DNA of 11,431 nt, taken from the IMG/VR virus record IMGVR_UViG_2651869755_000021. The stretch is one strand, 5' to 3'. Below the pieces are notes generated by a model. The model made no database searches and was not told where the DNA came from. It saw only the letters and a program-made list of their open reading frames with translations. Position 1 is the stretch's first letter, and each line of letters opens with the position of its first letter. Made by a program: the position numbers and the translations under genes. This stretch comes from a virus (Duplodnaviria; Heunggongvirae; Uroviricota; Caudoviricetes). Shown in pieces: positions 3,060-11,431 of this stretch.

Positions 3060-3707
3060 ATGTCACAGCCCGTATTAACTAATCACCTTAAAACTCAAAT
3101 CATCAATAACGCACTTGAGAAAGCGGGTATCCCCAAACGTAAATCAGCACTACGAGCTGCTCGTGTTGAATGGGCCGAACGTGTTCGGCTTGCAGCTATC
3201 GGGGGCGTAGAGAAAGAAGCTGAAATATTAAAAATATTAAAAATTATAAAAAAAATAGAAACACTGGTATCAAAATTACCCGAAGCATTAAAAACCGCCA
3301 ATAATATTATCAGGAAAGAGTGTTACATGTGTCTGAATCTGGCAGGTTCTCGGGTTACCGTCTATTTCAACGGTAACTATCGAGGATATGAATCAGGGTC
3401 ACCAGACCATATTCACAAAATCGCGCCGGGGGAATTTACCCTTCTGGCAAATGACCCTCTAGTTACAGAGTTTTACGGGTTTGATGCACTTTATGAGCAG
3501 ATACAGAGCGATGAGTCAGACATTCGACAGAATGTCAGCGCTGCACTCAGTAAAGTGCGCACAGTTAAGCGCCTGCTGGAAGAGTGGCCTGAAGCTAAAG
3601 AACTTCTGCCAGCCGATGCACCATCTGCTCCGCTTCCGCCAGCTATACGACGCGAAACTCTCAACGAAATGATCGGCCTCCCTTCTGACGAAGGGGTAGA
3701 TGCTTAA
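3060..3707 (+). CDS. Hypothetical protein with AT-rich Ile/Lys-rich repeat segment
   Basis: ORF is open from GTG 3030; in-frame ATGs at 3045 and 3060. ATG 3060 has GAGGG 8 nt upstream (preferred); 3030 and 3045 lie in or beside a hairpin. No recognised domain. Contains a 9-nt tandem repeat and an internal SD plus in-frame ATG at 3327. Confidence 0.6.
   Translation: MSQPVLTNHLKTQIINNALEKAGIPKRKSALRAARVEWAERVRLAAIGGVEKEAEILKILKIIKKIETLVSKLPEALKTANNIIRKECYMCLNLAGSRVTVYFNGNYRGYESGSPDHIHKIAPGEFTLLANDPLVTEFYGFDALYEQIQSDESDIRQNVSAALSKVRTVKRLLEEWPEAKELLPADAPSAPLPPAIRRETLNEMIGLPSDEGVDA
3225..3251 (+). repeat. Intragenic tandem 9-nt repeat (ATATTAAAA x2, then ATTATAAAA) followed by an A8 tract at 3248-3255
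   Basis: Read directly: atattaaaa/atattaaaa/attataaaa encoding ILK-ILK-IIK; strongly AT-rich compared with the rest of the gene. Confidence 0.8.
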
Positions 3708-3774
3708 TATTTCTTATAACAAAGGCTGGCTTAAGAAAATAGTTATCCAAACCAGCCTACCGCAATACTAAAAA

Positions 3775-4044
3775 TTAAAATTCATTGAATTTAAAAAGAC
3801 ATTTCCCTATTGGATTGCCATAGTCTCTACATGCCGAAATGCTGTCCCATACAGGCTGAGCCAAACACCCAAGAAAGAACCCAATAAGCGCAAAAATTAT
3901 AATTTTGGGAAGAACACGATCCTTAGGACCTTCTTCACGTTCGAGCCATGCGCCACCAGCCCGAACTATTCTCCCTAAAATATAAAGAATGGGGAAAGCA
4001 ATAATACCTATCAATGAAAGTATTCCGATACCAAAGCTAAACAC
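3775..4044 (-). CDS. Small membrane protein (89 aa, two predicted TM helices), opposite-strand accessory gene
   Basis: GTG start at 4044 preceded on the minus strand by AAGGAG with a 6-nt spacer. Hydrophobic stretches 'FSFGIGILSLIGIIAFPILYILG' and 'IIIFALIGFFLGCLAQPVW'. Lies in an AT-rich island between plus-strand genes. Confidence 0.6.
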   Translation of the reverse strand: MFSFGIGILSLIGIIAFPILYILGRIVRAGGAWLEREEGPKDRVLPKIIIFALIGFFLGCLAQPVWDSISACRDYGNPIGKCLFKFNEF

Positions 4045-4100
4045 CGCCGTCTCCTTGTTTATTTACACCTACATAACCATATATCACACAAGGTTATTTT

Positions 4101-6164
4101 ATGTCCAATATACTATGGGGTGACCTAGAAACCTATTGCGAAATCCCTATTACGAACGGTACCCATGCGTATGCCGAAGGCGTTGAAGTGATGCTGTTCG
4201 CATGGGCTATCAACGACGGGCCCATAAACGTGTGGGATATCACTGCCGGTGGTGGTATTCCACACGGCTTATACGAAGCAATCGCAGACCCTGAAACCCA
4301 GCTTTATTTCCATAACTCTCACTTCGACCGCACCGTCCTGCGTTATGCAATGCCGCGCCTGGCACCGCCAGTCGAACGTTGGCGCGACACAATGGTGCAG
4401 GCGCTGGCGCACGGTCTCCCGGGGTCTCTGGGGGAACTCTGCGAAGTACTAGGCGTCCCGCAAGACAAAGCGAAGGACAAAGAAGGTAAAGCGCTGATCC
4501 AGCTGTTCTGTAAGCCACGCCCGAAAAACAGCAAACTGCGCCGGGCCACCAGCAAAACTCACCCGGAAGAATGGCGGCGCTTTGTTGCTTACGCCGGACT
4601 GGATATCGAGGCAATGCGCGAAGTCTATAAACGTCTGCCGAAGTGGAATTATCAGGGGACAGAACTGGCGCTCTGGCATCGTGATCAGCAGATCAACGAC
4701 CGGGGCGTCTGCATGGACGTGGAACTCGCACGCGCTGCGATCGACGCGGTAGACCAGGAACAAAAGCGCCTGGCAAAGCGTACACAGGAAATGACTGATG
4801 GCGAAGTGCAGGCAGCCACACAACGAGACGCGTTGATTAAGCACATTGTTGAATCCTACGGTGTGGAGCTACCAGACATGCAACGCAGTACTCTGGAACG
4901 TCGTATTGCCGACCCCGATTTACCATCTGCCGTGAAAGAACTGCTGGCTATCCGCCTGCAGGCCAGTACTACCAGCACCAGTAAATACAAGGCACTGATG
5001 AAAGGCGTAAGCCACGACGGGCGCTTACGCGGTACGCTACAGTTCTGCGGGGCGTCACGTACCGGTCGTTGGGCCGGACGGCTATTCCAGCCCCAGAACC
5101 TTCCCCGCCCTTCACTAAAACAGGAACAAATAGACGAAGGCATCGAAGCACTGAAAGCCGGATGTGCAGACCTGCTGTTTGACAATATCATGGAACTAAC
5201 CAGTTCAGCGTTACGTGGCTGCATTATCGCGCCAACAGGCAAAAAGCTGGTGGTAAGTGACTTGTCGAACATTGAAGGCCGTATGCTGGCATGGCTGGCG
5301 GGAGAAGAATGGAAACTGAATGCATTCAGAGAGTACGACGCCGGAACGGGTCCGGACTTATATAAACTGGCGTATGCAAAAGCTTTCGATATTGCACCAG
5401 ATGATGTTGATAAACACATGCGTCAGATCGGTAAAGTCATGGAGCTCGGTCTGGGTTATGGTGGTGGTGTATCGGCTTTCATCACTTTTGCGCTGGTTTA
5501 CGGTCTCGATCTCGACGAGCTGGCGAACGCCGCACTGCCAAACATTCCCCGCGATGTTATCCGCGAGGCGAAAAGCTGGTACGACGAATCGGTTAAACGC
5601 AAGTCAACCTACGGGCTTTCTGAACGGGTATTTATCGCCTGCGACTCACTTAAACGTCTCTGGCGCAGGGCGCACCCGGCGACCTGCGATTTCTGGTACG
5701 AACTGGAGCGCACCGTCCGCACTGCAATCGCCACACCGCAAAAAACATTGTATTGCGGTTATCTTAAAATCCGCCGCGATGGCGCGTGGCTGCGCATACA
5801 GCTACCATCCGGACGCGCTGTATGCTACCCGTCTCCGGTTATCGAACAAGGGAATATCACCTACATGGGTGTTAACTCTTATTCGCGTAAATGGCAACGA
5901 CTCAAAACCTACGGCGGAAAGCTGGTGGAGAACGTCACCCAGGCGGCCGCCCGCGACGTTCTGGCCGGAAACATACCGCTTATCGAAGATGCCGGTTACA
6001 GCATTGTGCTGACGGTACACGACGAGGTGATCACCGAATCACCTGACACAGAAGATTTCAACGATAAAGCGCTTTCCGCGCTTCTCTCCACTAACCCCGA
6101 ATGGGCGCCCGATATCCCACTGAACGCTGGCGGTTTTGAGGCGTACCACTACCGTAAGGATTAA
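4101..6164 (+). CDS. Family A DNA polymerase (PolA-like) with 3'-5' exonuclease domain
   Basis: Exo I 'GDLET', Exo II '[10 protein letters not shown]', Exo III '[13 protein letters not shown]'; pol motif A '[15 protein letters not shown]', motif B '[16 protein letters not shown]', motif C 'VHDEVITE'. ATG 4101 with AAGG 8 nt upstream. Confidence 0.9.
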
Positions 6165-6169
6165 CTCCT

Positions 6170-6385
6170 ATGTCATTTAAATACCGGGATAATCCACTTT
6201 ATTACAGGGCTGCAAGGGAGGCTTTGCGACTTGAACAATCCGGCGAATATGACCGGGCAGCGAAGGTCTGGGCAAAAGCCAACCGCGAATCACATCACGA
6301 ACTGAATCAGGAATGGAGTGAACGCAGATCTGATTTTTGCCTGATGCAGAATATGCGTGAAAAGCGTAAGGCGGTCGAAGAATGA
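6170..6385 (+). CDS. Small hypothetical protein (71 aa)
   Basis: ATG 6170 six nt after the polymerase stop, AAGGA upstream; its stop overlaps the next start (ATGA at 6382-6385), suggesting translational coupling. No family recognised. Confidence 0.5.
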   Translation: MSFKYRDNPLYYRAAREALRLEQSGEYDRAAKVWAKANRESHHELNQEWSERRSDFCLMQNMREKRKAVEE

Positions 6386-6681
6386 TCGTTTACGTTGCCG
6401 GGCCGATGAGCGGTTACGAGCAATTTAACCGCCCGGCCTTTCATTCCGCAGCAAAGAGGCTAACGGACAAGGGATATGTTGTGCTTAACCCCGCAACTTT
6501 ACCCGATGGTTTGACACAGGCTCAGTACATGGACATCTGCCTCGCAATGCTTCGCTGTGCCGATACGATTTATATGCTCAAAGAGTGGGAGTACTCTGCC
6601 GGCGCACGTGCAGAAAACGCGTTGGCAGAGAAACTGGAATTGAATGTGCTTTTTGAAGAGTGGGATTCAGATGGCCTATGA
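6382..6681 (+). CDS. DUF4406 family protein (nucleoside 2-deoxyribosyltransferase-like fold)
   Basis: 99 aa; 'MIVYVAGPMSG...FN.PAF..AA..L...G..V.NPA...IYML..WE.S.GA..E...A..L' matches the DUF4406 pattern as I recall it; overlapping start/stop with the upstream gene. Confidence 0.7.
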   Translation: MIVYVAGPMSGYEQFNRPAFHSAAKRLTDKGYVVLNPATLPDGLTQAQYMDICLAMLRCADTIYMLKEWEYSAGARAENALAEKLELNVLFEEWDSDGL

Positions 6682-6952
6682 ACGTGAAAACCTAATCGAG
6701 AAGCATCTCGTCGCCGAAGTGAAAAAGGCTGGTGGGGTCGCCTTTAAGTTCATATCACCTGGTCGCCGCTCGGTACCAGATCGCATTGTTCTGCTACCCG
6801 GCGGCCGTCTCGTTTTCGTTGAATGTAAATCTCCCGGCAAGCCACCACGGCCTGACCAGTTGCGCGAGCATGAACGTCTGCGAAAGCTGGGCTTTACCGT
6901 GGTGGTGCTGGATAGCAAAGAGCTTACTGAAGTATTACCGCGAGCTCCCTAA
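6671..6952 (+). CDS. VRR-NUC domain nuclease (PD-(D/E)XK fold)
   Basis: 'VPDRIVLLPGGRLVFVECKSPGKPPRPDQLREHERL..GFTVVVLDS' carries the VRR-NUC D...E-x-K and Q signature. Start ambiguous: ATG 6671 (11-nt overlap with upstream gene, GGGA 5 nt upstream) or ATG 6644 (38-nt overlap). Confidence 0.75.
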   Translation: MAYERENLIEKHLVAEVKKAGGVAFKFISPGRRSVPDRIVLLPGGRLVFVECKSPGKPPRPDQLREHERLRKLGFTVVVLDSKELTEVLPRAP

Positions 6953-7867
6953 CTGAGTTTTTCGAAAGTTATCAGCGATTCTTGCTGCCTCAGAGCGCCC
7001 ACCAGGCAATAAACCAGCTTTACCAAGAATGTAATTTGGGAATTTAGTAGGTAGGTACTCATGACGGAACCAACGACGAAATTCTGGTAAAGCGTCATTG
7101 GGGTATGCCTGAATCATCTGTGGGTTCGAAGCTGCTTGGTTAAAATCATCCGGATAATGGTGCGCACACTTTACACGTTCTCCAAATTTTTCAGACAACC
7201 CTCTAGCGCTCCAATGTTTCGCCCAGCAGGAACCTACACTGATATCAGGTACCGTATACATATTAACTACGAGACCCGCGGTAATCAAATCAACCATCAA
7301 ACCTGCAATTTCATTAAAAACAATAAAATACCCATCCGGTACAGCTCCCGTACTTTGAATAAGAGAGACCCGGTCATGATAGTGGCGCCATGGATCTTCT
7401 GGCTGGTAATGTAACGCACCATAAATATAATCGCGGAGACCAACACGTGCTAGTTCACGATAGTATTGCTGAGCGGTCGCATTCGACGCTGTTTGTGATT
7501 CAAATGCGTAAAACTCCAGCAGTGCCATACAGACAATATCTGGAAACGCATAATGGACAGACCCATTACGCATAATCGGTATAAATAGTACTGGTTCACG
7601 GTAACCAGCCTGCTGCAGATAGGTACTTATAAACTCCATTCGCCCACGGGTGAATACGCCACTTGCAAAACATTGTGCGTATTCCGTTGCAATATCTGCA
7701 ATATTTGTTCGATTTACACCGCAAATTCTCGCCAAACCATTCTGAGTAAGGTACGGAATTCCGTTCTCCAAAACGCCCATTTCGATATCATTAAAAACCC
7801 CTTCCTGCTTGACACCAAGATCTAAGACCGCGCGGGGTGTGGGCTGAGGCTGACTCTGTGCATTCAT
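6935..7867 (-). CDS. Hypothetical protein (310 aa), opposite-strand accessory gene inside the replication module
   Basis: ATG at 7867 with AGGAA about 9 nt upstream on the minus strand; no comparable plus-strand ORF across the 918 bp beyond the VRR-NUC stop (6953-7870); visibly lower GC than its neighbours; 3' end overlaps the VRR-NUC 3' end by 18 nt (convergent). N-terminal segment 'IPYLTQNGLARICGVNRTNIADIA' may be a DNA-binding (HTH-like) region; no catalytic motif recognised. Confidence 0.7.
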   Translation of the reverse strand: MNAQSQPQPTPRAVLDLGVKQEGVFNDIEMGVLENGIPYLTQNGLARICGVNRTNIADIATEYAQCFASGVFTRGRMEFISTYLQQAGYREPVLFIPIMRNGSVHYAFPDIVCMALLEFYAFESQTASNATAQQYYRELARVGLRDYIYGALHYQPEDPWRHYHDRVSLIQSTGAVPDGYFIVFNEIAGLMVDLITAGLVVNMYTVPDISVGSCWAKHWSARGLSEKFGERVKCAHHYPDDFNQAASNPQMIQAYPNDALPEFRRWFRHEYLPTKFPNYILGKAGLLPGGRSEAARIADNFRKTQLGSSR

Positions 7868-7970
7868 CTTATTGATTTCCTTATTTTTATACCCTGAGAG
7901 CTACGTATTAGGACGTAATCTTAATCCCCCTGTTTATACGCCAACTTGCAATTTTTTGCGAGGTACTACT
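7868..7970. promoter_or_regulatory. Divergent intergenic control region between the 310-aa minus-strand gene and the SNF2 helicase gene
   Basis: About 100 bp AT-rich spacer holding the SDs of both divergent genes. Promoter elements are presumed, not individually resolved. Confidence 0.35.
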
Positions 7971-9365
7971 TTGAATACACTTTTCACCCCCCGCCCTTAT
8001 CAAGATCTCATCATCAATCATCAAATCGAAACCCTGCGCGGCAACATCTGGGCAGGGATGGGGATGGGTAAAACCGTAGCGACACTCACCACGCTGGAAG
8101 ATCTTTTCATGGCTGGAGCAGAAACACGCCCCGCGCTGGTCCTCGCGCCGCTACGCGTTGCAGCAAGCACCTGGCCTGATGAAGCTGTTAAATGGGGGCA
8201 TCTGCGTAATATTGAGGTACAGCCGATTATCGGTAACGCCAAAGCGCGCTCTACGGCGCTGGCGAACAGCAACGCGAGCGTGTTCACCATCAACTACGAT
8301 AACCTTGTCTGGCTGGTTGAGGAATTGGGAGAACGATGGCCGTTCGGTACTGTCATTCCAGATGAAAGCACCCGGCTAAAATCCTTCCGGCTACGAGGTG
8401 GTGGTAAGCGCGCTGCGGCACTAGGCAAAGTGGCGCATAAGTATGTCCGGCGCTGGATAAATCTCACCGGTACGCCAGCACCGAACGGCCTGGTAGATTT
8501 GTGGGGACAATCGTGGTTTGTGGACCAAGGGCAACGTCTCGGGCGCACTTACGGCGCGTTTACCTCACGCTGGTTCAACTCAATACAGTTTCCGGGGCAG
8601 AGCTGGACCAAACTGGAGCCGTTTGCTCACTCACAGGGTGAAATACAGCGAGCGTTAGCCGATGTGACTCTCTCGCTGGATGCGGCCGACTGGTTCGATA
8701 TCAAAGACCCTATCCATAACGTAATCCACGTGGATATGCCGCCGAAGGCCCGTCAGCAGTATCGTGAAATGGAAAAAGAAATGTTCCTCGAGCTGAATGG
8801 CGAAGGCATCGAAGCACCGAACGCCGCGGCAAAGACACTGAAGTGTCTGCAAATCGCCAGTGGCGCAGTATACACAGACGACACCGGAAGTTGGTCAGAA
8901 CTGCATGACATCAAACTGCAGGCGCTGGACAGCATACTGACCGAAGCAGCTGGCGCACCTGTGCTGGTTGCTTATCACTGGAAACACGATCTTGAACGCT
9001 TGCTTAAAGCATTCCCTCGCGGTCGTCACCTCGACCAGGATCCAAAGACACTGCGCGACTGGAATTCCGGAAAGATTCCTGTTCTCTTTGCACACCCAGC
9101 CAGCGCGGGCCACGGCCTGAACATGCAGGACGGCGGAAATATACTGGTATTTTTCTCACACTGGTGGGACCTGGAGCAATATCAGCAAATTATTGAACGT
9201 ATCGGCCCCACCAGGCAGATACAGGCCGGACACAATCGTCCGGTATTTATTCACCACATTATTGCTGCCGACACTATGGACGAAATGGTGATGGAGCGGC
9301 GCAACTCAAAACGAACAGTGCAGGACATCCTGCTCGATGCCATGAAAAAGAGAGGTATAGCATGA
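7971..9365 (+). CDS. SNF2/DEAD-like family helicase (phage replication helicase)
   Basis: 'RPYQ' then motif I 'GMGMGKT', motif II 'IPDESTRLK', motif III 'LTGTPAPNGL', C-terminal 'HPASAGHGLNMQ' and 'QQIIERIGPTRQ'. Proposed TTG start at 7971 with GAGGT 6 nt upstream; the ORF is open from TTG 7872, but that would begin at the neighbouring gene's start. Confidence 0.8.
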   Translation: MNTLFTPRPYQDLIINHQIETLRGNIWAGMGMGKTVATLTTLEDLFMAGAETRPALVLAPLRVAASTWPDEAVKWGHLRNIEVQPIIGNAKARSTALANSNASVFTINYDNLVWLVEELGERWPFGTVIPDESTRLKSFRLRGGGKRAAALGKVAHKYVRRWINLTGTPAPNGLVDLWGQSWFVDQGQRLGRTYGAFTSRWFNSIQFPGQSWTKLEPFAHSQGEIQRALADVTLSLDAADWFDIKDPIHNVIHVDMPPKARQQYREMEKEMFLELNGEGIEAPNAAAKTLKCLQIASGAVYTDDTGSWSELHDIKLQALDSILTEAAGAPVLVAYHWKHDLERLLKAFPRGRHLDQDPKTLRDWNSGKIPVLFAHPASAGHGLNMQDGGNILVFFSHWWDLEQYQQIIERIGPTRQIQAGHNRPVFIHHIIAADTMDEMVMERRNSKRTVQDILLDAMKKRGIA

Positions 9366-9562
9366 GCGAGAAACCCAACGATTTACTCACCCCGGATGAA
9401 GTATGCCAAAAGTTAGGCATTACACAGAAAACGCTATGTGAGTGGAATATTAAGCATCGTCATCGGGCTATCCTGGCACCAATTCGTTTCAGTGCAAAAG
9501 TAGTTCGTTATGAGCGCCGAAATGTCGACGCTTTTATTCAAAAATGTCGCAGCCAGTATTAA
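9362..9562 (+). CDS. AlpA/Xis-like HTH DNA-binding protein (putative excisionase or transcriptional regulator)
   Basis: 66 aa; 'LLTPDEVCQKLGITQKTLCEW...RYERRNVDAFI' resembles the AlpA/excisionase family; ATG overlaps the helicase stop (ATGA 9362-9365); GAGAGG SD upstream. Confidence 0.75.
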   Translation: MSEKPNDLLTPDEVCQKLGITQKTLCEWNIKHRHRAILAPIRFSAKVVRYERRNVDAFIQKCRSQY

Positions 9563-10956
9563 CCTCGCCGCCGTAGCAATGCCACCTGCGCAAGTATGCT
9601 CCGCTCGTGAGCCTCGAAAGCTTCGCGCTTTAACGCAATCTCTTCCTGTAAAATCTCATCAGAAAAGTCGTAATGTTCTGCCATCGGGTCATCTGACTTG
9701 CTGGAGTGGTGAAGGCAAAGGAGGCTGATTTCCCTTCGGTCTGATCGGGAATAGCCTCTTTCCTTCATCAAGGCAATAACATTGCTCTTAAGGAATTTAC
9801 GGCACATCGTATTAAATGCACCGTCTTTCCCTTTAACAGTCCCATCATGTTTTATTCCTTTTACAGCCCCGTCCGGGCTGTATGTTTTCACCAGCTTATC
9901 CAGTGATCGTTTTGAAAATGGCTGCATTGGATCACGTGGCTGCAAAAATACATAATCCCTGTTGCACTCAGGAACTGAATCACGCCAGGCTTTCTGCTCG
10001 TCGATAATCCGCCGGATCTCAGGCGTTATCGGCAGGCGGAAAGCCTTTTGTGTTTTCATAGCCCCTCGCATGCCGATAACCCCTTCCGGATAAACAATTT
10101 CACCAGCCTCCTCGTGAACGTAGTCCCAGCGCAGGTTATGGACATTAATCGGACGAACGCCAGTGATGATCATGAAGCGAACAGCATTCTTCTGGTGTAC
10201 AGAGGTGCAGGCAGCAACATTGAGCCAGAGTCGGGCGATTGATTCAATATCGGTAAAAAGCCGTGTGGGGGTGGGTTTCTGTACGCGGGAGGAAACATAA
10301 TCATCTGGCAAACTGGCGGCAACATTGCGGCCGTTGCAAAGAGTAGGTGCGCAGAACTTCCAGAACCGACGGAGCTCGGCAAACAACTCTAGGGCGTTAT
10401 TGTTCGAGCGAGTGGCGATCCACTCGTCCAGCACTTCCACCAGCCGACTGTATGTTACGTCGCTGAACACCTCGCGCTCGCCGAACGTTGCTTTAATCCG
10501 GTCGATACGCACCCCGTAGGTTGTGAAACTGTCCGGGCTCAGCTTCTGCCGGGCTACTTTGGCTTTGAGGTCATCCCGGTACATTTCCAGCGCTGCATGT
10601 ACGGACTCTGCCCGCAGTCCACCGTCAGCCATACCTAGTGCTTTTTCGCGCGCCAGCTGGATAGCGAGCTCCGGCCACTCGCCGAGCTTTTTACCTTTGA
10701 GGCCCATCTTTTTTGGAAACTCGGCGTAAAATGTAACCTTACCGGCTTTGCTGAAATCGATACGGAGATAGTTCTCTTTTTCGTATTTGGAACGGCGAGC
10801 CACACCGGAAGCAGCGAGGATGATTTTGGCGGCAGCAACACAGATTTTCATGTGTGCGCTGGTATAGGGGGGTTTACAAGCGTCCCATTTTTCAGATGCG
10901 GCTAAAACATCGTCATTATTGGGGCTATCCGGATTATGTGTTACAGTGCACGGCAT
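9559..10956 (-). CDS. Tyrosine recombinase (phage integrase)
   Basis: Catalytic-core features: 'ITGVRPINV' (Arg box), 'LLCLHHSSKSDDPMAEHYDF' (His and Tyr region). ATG 10956 has AAGGA with a 6-nt spacer; the ORF is open from TTG 10962, and ATG 10851 is another candidate but lacks an SD. Stop overlaps the AlpA-like stop. Confidence 0.8.
   Translation of the reverse strand: MPCTVTHNPDSPNNDDVLAASEKWDACKPPYTSAHMKICVAAAKIILAASGVARRSKYEKENYLRIDFSKAGKVTFYAEFPKKMGLKGKKLGEWPELAIQLAREKALGMADGGLRAESVHAALEMYRDDLKAKVARQKLSPDSFTTYGVRIDRIKATFGEREVFSDVTYSRLVEVLDEWIATRSNNNALELFAELRRFWKFCAPTLCNGRNVAASLPDDYVSSRVQKPTPTRLFTDIESIARLWLNVAACTSVHQKNAVRFMIITGVRPINVHNLRWDYVHEEAGEIVYPEGVIGMRGAMKTQKAFRLPITPEIRRIIDEQKAWRDSVPECNRDYVFLQPRDPMQPFSKRSLDKLVKTYSPDGAVKGIKHDGTVKGKDGAFNTMCRKFLKSNVIALMKERGYSRSDRREISLLCLHHSSKSDDPMAEHYDFSDEILQEEIALKREAFEAHERSILAQVALLRRRG

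Positions 10957-11431
<475 letters not shown>

Follow-up and report, generated by a model that had tools for sequence, protein, structure and literature searches.

We analyzed a stretch of 11,431 nucleotides (nt; hereafter the window) from the Caudoviricetes record IMGVR_UViG_2651869755_000021 of IMG/VR and focused on a small gene at 6382-6681 on the + strand, which encodes a protein of 99 amino acids (aa) belonging to the DUF4406 family. In our judgment there is about an even chance that its product is an accessory phage N-glycosidase of 2′-deoxynucleoside 5′-monophosphates (dNMPs) that works through a covalent intermediate at Glu78. We favor this reading because of the predicted fold, a conserved set of Tyr, Ser and Glu residues, links to pyrophosphatases in other phages, and the precedent of the phage enzyme DmtZ.

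The gene starts with ATG, and its end coordinate includes the stop codon. Its product matches the Pfam profile PF14359 (DUF4406) with an E-value of 8.6e-34 and 116.3 bits against a cut-off of 22, and residues 1-90 align with positions 1-90 of the 91 in the profile. The protein also matches the PHROG family phrog_355, ‘nucleoside 2-deoxyribosyltransferase’ (E 1.8e-44), and its RefSeq entry is WP_000637722.1, named ‘DUF4406 domain-containing protein’. The original prediction, which was made from the DNA letters alone, had placed a 99-aa DUF4406 protein here, and the Pfam and RefSeq results agree with it. The 6382-6681 gene is a genuine, correctly identified member of a large uncharacterized phage family. 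Its product belongs to a known enzyme superfamily, of which it is a minimal form with a variant active site.

An AlphaFold2 model built from a 67-sequence alignment has a predicted local distance difference test score (pLDDT) of 94 and consists of a four-strand, four-helix α/β domain. In the model this domain has the three-layer α/β arrangement typical of the nucleoside 2′-deoxyribosyltransferases (NDTs). Foldseek comparison with the Protein Data Bank (PDB) returned NDTs, human and rat DNPH1, MilB and BcmB, all with probability 1.00. At the sequence level, profiles were needed to reach solved structures, as a search of the PDB with the single protein gave a spurious match only. The DUF4406 family profile matched the Trypanosoma brucei NDT among PDB sequences (E 2.7e-4) and also reached BcmB, BlsM and the PDB entry 1T1J. 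Thus, the protein is predicted to have a minimal NDT/DNPH1/MilB fold, and the NDT-like fold proposed originally is borne out by the Pfam match, the model and the Foldseek matches. The modeled domain ends at about residue 92, with the last strand at 88-91 and residues 96-99 disordered.

We counted residue conservation over 150 diverse DUF4406 representatives, and the DNPH1 and Lactobacillus leichmannii NDT sequences were checked against the PDB before use. Ser72, Glu78, Tyr49, Pro37, Asn16 and Arg17 are near-invariant across the set. Two of these residues lie in the motif Ser72-x-Gly74-Ala75-x-x-Glu78 (codons at 6595-6615, + strand), in which the Ser is predicted to contact the 5′-phosphate and the Glu to be the covalent nucleophile. 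In hhalign comparisons, Ser72 corresponds to DNPH1 Ser98 and Glu78 to DNPH1 Glu104, and the pair is in register with S-P-G-T-H-x-E of BcmB and BlsM and with S-A-G-I-R-R-E of 1T1J. Glu78 additionally aligns with Glu82 of T. brucei NDT and Glu103 of DmtZ; DmtZ shares the Gly and Glu of the motif but has Thr97 at the Ser72 position. The residue at position 72 is Ser in all 144 aligned representatives, and that at position 78 is Glu in 138 out of 142. By alignment, the family therefore appears to carry both the Glu nucleophile of the superfamily and, six residues before it, the DNPH1-type Ser. In DNPH1, Glu104 is the covalent nucleophile that forms the glycosyl-enzyme intermediate, Tyr24, Asp80 and Glu104 make up the catalytic triad, and Ser98 and Ser128′ coordinate the phosphate; MilB keeps the Ser (PMC10603095).

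The remaining conserved positions fit the same comparison. Tyr4 (codon at 6391-6393, + strand) aligns with DNPH1 Tyr24 and DmtZ Tyr6 in hhalign; of the 150 representatives, 141 align at this position, 123 of them with Tyr and 18 with Phe. Tyr4 would thus be the strand-1 Tyr or Phe of the N-(deoxy)ribosyltransferase-like superfamily, a position at which Tyr orients the nucleophile and excludes ribose (PMC10603095, PMC12884076). Pro37 (codon at 6490-6492, + strand), part of a conserved Asn-Pro after strand 2, aligns with DmtZ Pro57 in profile and hhalign comparisons and is kept in 148 of the 150 representatives. In DmtZ, Pro57 is the ‘water-excluding’ proline of transferases (PMC12884076).

We propose the following mechanism by analogy with these enzymes. 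The protein is probably a homodimer of the DNPH1/MilB/DmtZ type that binds a 2′-deoxynucleoside 5′-monophosphate. Glu78 would attack C1′ to give a covalent deoxyribose-5-phosphate-enzyme ester, with release of the free base, and the sugar phosphate would then pass to water, making the protein a hydrolase, or perhaps to a second base in a phosphodeoxyribosyl transfer. Tyr4 would orient the nucleophile and select deoxyribose, and Ser72 together with the conserved Asn16-Arg17 would hold the 5′-phosphate. Expressed together with the polymerase and nuclease genes, the enzyme would take certain dNMPs out of the pool or divert them while the phage replicates; candidates are dNMPs that arise from the breakdown of DNA or from pyrophosphatases acting on 2′-deoxynucleoside 5′-triphosphates (dNTPs).

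The same alignments bear on the name that the family often carries. A classical nucleoside 2′-deoxyribosyltransferase would serve salvage by exchanging the bases of deoxynucleosides; that name is used in PHROG and in many GenBank records, the best Foldseek and profile matches are NDTs, and Pro37 aligns with a proline conserved in transferases. The NDTs of PF05014 (L. leichmannii, T. brucei and C. thermalis) have the same fold as DUF4406 and share its Tyr and Glu positions. They differ in their longer chains of 150-160 aa and in the Asp at the Ser72 position, which is seen in T. brucei NDT and in L. leichmannii NDT (Asp92...Glu98). In DUF4406 the residue six before the nucleophile is instead Ser, as in the nucleotide hydrolases, and because Ser72 replaces the Asp of the true transferases, classical nucleoside salvage, one of the roles suggested originally, is disfavored. 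DmtZ likewise lacks the Asp or Asn that stabilizes the 5′-hydroxyl in NDTs (PMC12884076). The window protein has no PF05014 match at E ≤ 0.01 in Pfam, and its homologues score 18-29 bits with that model, with only Tweety19 gp28 (29.2) just above the 28.8 cut-off. Judged by the PF05014 scores and the missing Asp, the protein does not appear to be an NDT proper. The C-terminal segment of the longer NDT chains, which completes the active site of the partner subunit, is also missing in DUF4406. The database names are unvalidated, and GenBank names for the homologues conflict with each other (deoxyribosyltransferase, hydrolase, CMP hydrolase, dCMP deaminase, MazG). We consider a classical NDT unlikely. 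A single-sequence hhalign comparison with L. leichmannii NDT gave a spurious 14-residue match, which was discarded.

Evidence for a dNMP substrate class comes from gene neighborhoods. In the mycobacteriophage ZoeJ, the DUF4406 gene gp54 overlaps gp55, which encodes a dATP/dGTP diphosphohydrolase of PF18909 (DUF5664; locus L232, 2126-3438). In phage Ariel, the DUF4406 gene gp162 lies beside the MazG-like gp164 and gp166, which encodes a PF18909 protein (locus L011, 3977-5976). BFVD contains viral proteins of 216 and 462 aa that are named for this diphosphohydrolase domain and include a DUF4406-like fold at 34-36% identity; these DUF4406-diphosphohydrolase fusions are reported from BFVD names only.

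These arrangements recall DmtZ, an NDT-superfamily enzyme of Z-genome phages. A 2026 study showed that DmtZ hydrolyzes dAMP, which it receives from a dNTP pyrophosphatase that is encoded next to it or fused to it, and that it transfers the deoxyribose 5-phosphate to the Z base (PMC12884076). The DmtZ triad consists of Tyr6, Asn77 and Glu103, and small uncharged residues take the place of the Asp of nucleoside transferases (PMC12884076). DmtZ (phages Ghobes and Wayne) and DUF4406 are thus alike as phage NDT-superfamily proteins paired or fused with a dNTP pyrophosphatase, in the latter case in ZoeJ, in Ariel and in the reported fusions, and they align at Tyr, Pro and Glu in hhalign. The differences are also clear. 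The hhalign E-value is 0.12, which is not significant, and DmtZ does not match the DUF4406 model. DmtZ has 161 aa and Asn77 and occurs in PurZ0 phages, whereas the window protein has Cys53 and no purZ-type or pyrophosphatase gene nearby. Neither the sequence nor a pairing with DutZ/DUF5664 in a PurZ0 phage places the window protein in the DmtZ clade, and DmtZ is a functional precedent rather than a DUF4406 member. Among the three roles that had been offered for the gene, nucleotide pool manipulation is the best supported, by the Ser-x5-Glu motif, the diphosphohydrolase neighbors and DmtZ; this is not so for salvage or for DNA base modification.

The other relatives differ from DUF4406 to varying degrees. 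DNPH1/Rcl, a 2′-deoxynucleoside 5′-phosphate N-hydrolase that acts on 5-hydroxymethyl-dUMP (hmdUMP), is about 20% identical to the window protein, with no significant sequence match; its catalytic core has about 145 aa, compared with 99 aa here, and it has Asp80, a shielding loop and a C-terminal extension with Ser128′, whereas DUF4406 has Cys53 and neither the loop nor the extension. MilB, BcmB and BlsM are N-glycosidases of CMP and hydroxymethyl-CMP (hmCMP) from nucleoside-antibiotic pathways, and their genomic context is unrelated to that of DUF4406. In MilB, which prefers ribonucleotides, the Tyr is replaced by Phe (PMC10603095), whereas the window protein has Tyr4, and BcmB has Asp90 where DUF4406 has Cys53. 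The PA1492-like protein of PDB entry 1T1J is 18% identical and belongs to a different Pfam family (DUF1937).

Several observations weigh against a dNMP N-glycosidase. The apparent support for enzymatic activity in any DUF4406 member comes from comparison and not from experiment, and the closest solved structure, 1T1J, is itself uncharacterized and adds no functional information. At the level of residues, the alignments with enzymes of solved structure have little statistical strength (E 0.05-1). In these hhalign and profile alignments, the third catalytic residue (DNPH1 Asp80, BcmB Asp90 and DmtZ Asn77) corresponds in every case to Cys53 (Asp51-Ile52-Cys53, codons at 6532-6540, + strand). Asp51, two residues upstream, aligns only with T. 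brucei NDT Asp48, and 63 of the 150 representatives (42%) have no Asp or Glu at either position 51 or 53. The Asp or Asn that the superfamily carries on the helix before strand 3 thus seems to be missing from the family; of the catalytic residues that the original prediction wanted compared, Tyr4 and Glu78 are aligned and conserved but this third one is not. DUF4406 also lacks the C-terminal helical extension that carries the second phosphate-binding Ser of DNPH1, and no equivalent of Ser128′ from a partner subunit is found in the model. By analogy with MilB Arg23, the conserved Asn16-Arg17 might substitute for this missing phosphate ligand. Finally, no dNTP pyrophosphatase or other nucleotide-metabolism gene was detected in the window with Pfam and PHROG, and such neighbors are rare elsewhere, at 1-2 of the 267 neighbor proteins in the survey described next.

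We surveyed 214 loci, mainly proteobacterial and metagenomic, that represent 40 DUF4406 sequence clusters, and scanned the flanking proteins with Pfam. The commonest neighbor class is DNA methyltransferases (C5, Dam, N6/N4, MT-A70 and D12). Methyltransferases account for 18 out of 267 proteins at offsets ±1 to ±2, compared with about 3 out of 148 at ±3 to ±5 (Fisher p 0.037). A methyltransferase lies within two genes in 9 of the 40 clusters, with a peak immediately upstream (position -1), and such neighbors, of at least five classes, recur in unrelated phages. In phage N15, gp57 (DUF4406) overlaps gp58 (a C5 methylase; locus L012, 5001-6309), and in Gordonia phage Brylie the DUF4406 and methyltransferase genes gp65-gp66 adjoin (locus L100, 2516-3579). 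A methyltransferase is also found beside DUF4406 in a further locus (L027, 1813-3780), one DUF4406 neighbor is a 656-aa fused C5 and Dam methylase, and sister prophages of the one in the window encode a C5 methylase two genes downstream of DUF4406. The association is real but modest and concerns a minority of lineages. Pfam and PHROG detected no methyltransferase in the window itself. The diphosphohydrolase association bears more directly on mechanism than the methyltransferase one.

In a second reading, the family would accompany phage DNA methyltransferases and sanitize methylated dNMPs. N6-methyl-dAMP (m6-dAMP), 5-methyl-dCMP or both, derived from degraded methylated DNA, would be destroyed; their off-target re-incorporation, an invitation to type IV restriction, would thereby be prevented, and a modified-nucleotide danger signal would be erased as well. 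m6-dAMP triggers the PUA-Calcineurin-HAD defense (bioRxiv 10.64898/2026.01.15.699771). This reading draws on the fact that five methyltransferase classes are the top neighbors and peak at the immediately adjacent position, on the N15 overlap and the sister-prophage C5 methylase, and on the action of Ser-type relatives on base-modified pyrimidine nucleotides, the characterized ones using hmdUMP and hmCMP (PMC10603095). We regard it as improbable.

Within the window, the DUF4406 gene lies between two small genes with which it overlaps. Upstream is a 71-aa ANR/PerC-like regulator at 6170-6385 on the + strand (ANR family NF033650, E 9.4e-20), whose stop overlaps the DUF4406 start by 4 nt in the sequence ATGA at 6382-6385. 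Downstream is a VRR-NUC-like nuclease of 93 aa at 6671-6952 on the + strand (phrog_93 endonuclease, E 1.6e-31; named VRR-NUC in RefSeq, with a Pfam VRR_NUC E-value of 8.3e-4 that is under the cut-off). Its open reading frame (ORF) overlaps the 3′ end of DUF4406 by 11 nt. A family A DNA polymerase (4101-6164, + strand; PF00476, phrog_17) lies upstream in the same direction, and Pfam and PHROG identify a DUF2800 PD-(D/E)XK exonuclease at 1143-2444. We found no promoter-like or + strand terminator-like sites within 3700-8000, and no + strand terminator-like site between the polymerase and DUF4406. These data confirm the geometry of translational coupling with both neighbors and the nearby polymerase and nucleases that had been described from the sequence; the upstream ‘small unknown protein’ of that description is present but is an ANR-family regulator.

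The original prediction had put weight on this replication-operon placement, which comparison with related phages does not sustain. The context of polymerase, ANR and VRR-NUC recurs in only 1 of the 80 closest IMG/VR loci, and most of these loci are lambdoid early regions in which DUF4406 lies between DUF977 (LygF-like) and Ead/Ea22 genes. Sister phage ON470588 shares the replication module at ~97% identity and has no DUF4406 anywhere in its genome. Its slot between polymerase and nuclease (25618-26379, equivalent to window 6170-6681) holds a 253-aa CAP12/Pycsar-type TIR protein (PF10137, E 2.9e-31) accompanied by two small ORFs, exactly at the place of ANR and DUF4406. The gap between polymerase and nuclease is therefore a swap site for accessory genes, and because a near-identical module does without it, DUF4406 is accessory and not part of the core replication machinery. 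The trio of ANR, DUF4406 and VRR-NUC is constant in all eight prophage variants that were examined, whereas the contents of the flanking slots differ between variants (BstA, a C5 methylase, AntA, Arc, pRha or UCP028583). We rejected ANR-DUF4406 as a conserved two-gene module, as ANR is upstream in only one of the 80 closest viral loci, and N15 gp56 shows no similarity to ANR. VRR-NUC, the polymerase and DUF2800 were rejected as functional partners on the same count.

Substrates other than nucleotide-pool dNMPs were also considered. The protein could cleave the glycosidic bond of NAD+, of a signal derived from ADP-ribose or of another substrate with a good leaving group, and so act as a host-takeover, defense or counter-defense factor. 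Tyr4, at the position that excludes a 2′-hydroxyl, favors a deoxyribose substrate, and the links to dNTP diphosphohydrolases point to dNMPs. No defense-system match to the DUF4406 protein was returned by PADLOC, and a survey of viral NAD+ and ADP-ribose proteins found only cyclase-type members of the superfamily to be NAD-related in viruses (PMC9503650). We judge this quite unlikely.

The incomplete triad (Cys53) and the truncation of the domain relative to active enzymes could instead mean that the protein is a non-catalytic nucleotide binder, serving as a sponge or sensor for a (possibly modified) nucleotide or as a partner of the ANR regulator or the nuclease, to both of whose genes its own is translationally coupled. 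Inactive members of the fold class have been described as nucleotide sensors (PMC9503650). However, the retention of Glu78 in nearly all aligned representatives and of Tyr4 in most of them, with Phe in the remainder, is hard to explain without chemistry, and ANR and VRR-NUC are not conserved partners outside this prophage family, so we hold a non-catalytic role to be very unlikely. Least credible, and extremely unlikely in our view, is an S-adenosylhomocysteine nucleosidase that helps phage DNA methyltransferases by removing their inhibitory product: the unrelated methyltransferase classes that are the commonest neighbors would have their cofactor in common, but S-adenosylhomocysteine is a ribonucleoside without a 5′-phosphate that fits neither Tyr4 nor Ser72, the window encodes no methyltransferase, and the neighbor enrichment is modest.

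The family is abundant. Public assemblies contain the exact 99-aa protein in 6890 indexed blocks, and an exhaustive HMMER search matched 10,077 cluster representatives to DUF4406 at E ≤ 0.001, numbers that go far beyond chance. With tblastn, we detected homologues in 710 out of 50,697 phage records; N15 gp57 is among them, as are the homologues of many actinophages. The homologues scanned are single-domain DUF4406 proteins, and Pfam analysis of 49 long homologues gave only DUF551, zinc ribbons and related NDT-clan models as candidate fusion partners, none of them informative. In full-text searches, DUF4406 came up in three papers, always as a bare annotation, and PF14359 in none; literature searches that also covered deoxyribosyltransferase-like phage proteins and DrHyd returned no work on the function of the family. 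The family therefore looks functionally uncharacterized, as the original prediction had stated. Ariel gp162 is a DUF4406 protein although it is annotated as a ‘MazG-like pyrophosphatase’, and several other actinophage annotations of the family (‘deoxycytidylate deaminase’, ‘hydrolase’) look wrong.

DUF4406 is thus one of the commoner unexplained small phage proteins, with thousands of Escherichia coli assemblies for the exact protein alone. If the dNMP N-glycosidase reading is true, phages would have a further enzyme, minimal and widespread, with which to reshape nucleotide pools, and the DmtZ result, obtained in rare Z-genome phages, would be extended to ordinary temperate ones. Activity in an enzyme that has Cys instead of the catalytic Asp or Asn and no C-terminal extension would also be instructive about mechanism in the DNPH1 family, a drug target. 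The methyltransferase link, if functional, would tie nucleotide-pool sanitation to epigenetic marks and to defenses that sense modified nucleotides. Should the protein turn out to be ordinary, the practical benefit would be a better annotation. The interest of the gene rests mainly on an abundant family with a function proposed by comparison and on the methyltransferase and pyrophosphatase associations.

The window comes from an E. coli prophage integrated beside yfhL and represents its early/replication arm. A single match covering at least 80% of the window is present in 57 of 5,426 complete E. coli genomes, with identity up to 99.9%. In the intact copy of strain CAU16175, head, lysis and immunity modules are found on the left side, and the integrase and yfhL on the right. 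An IS1 fragment occupies bases 1-248 of the window; it adjoins the 300-aa gene with which the replication operon begins (238-1140 in intact copies) and has taken the place of the first ~11 nt of that gene. The replication operon is therefore severed here from its former upstream sequence, and the prophage copy in the window may be defective.

An Nmad5-family protein is encoded at 3060-3707 on the + strand (E 2.5e-55). Mutation of nmad5 in Dhillonvirus allows phages to escape sensing by the Tmn defense system (PMC11846954). The Nmad5 gene is present in some variants of the prophage and absent in others, independently of DUF4406, and strict co-occurrence of the two was rejected, as some variants have DUF4406 without Nmad5. 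Apart from this uncharacterized protein, no gene of a DNA base modification pathway was recognized in the window, and none is annotated in a 41-kb stretch of the intact copy that takes in part of the prophage; the base-modification role suggested originally finds no support in either. Between Nmad5 and the polymerase lies an 89-aa ORF with hydrophobic stretches (3775-4044, - strand) that matches no family. In sister prophages this position is taken by a 229-aa UCP028583 protein or by other ORFs, so it is another variable slot.

Downstream of DUF4406, the abortive-infection gene bstA (6935-7867, - strand; PADLOC E 1.4e-115, phrog_6287) lies convergently between VRR-NUC and an SNF2 helicase, and overlaps the 3′ end of VRR-NUC by 18 nt. 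In sister prophages, this slot is occupied by a C5 DNA methylase and BstA, by Arc/pRha genes or by unknown ORFs. The SNF2 helicase (7971-9365, by Pfam and PHROG) starts at TTG 7872 (497 aa) in the ORF list, whereas its RefSeq equivalent starts at 7971 (464 aa), and the first ~33 codons of the longer ORF are probably untranslated. The right end of the prophage spans 9362-11431 and contains a 66-aa HTH_17 (excisionase-like) gene and a tyrosine integrase (9559-10962, - strand). The host ferredoxin gene yfhL runs from 11171 onward, and the prophage attachment site should lie within 10963-11170.

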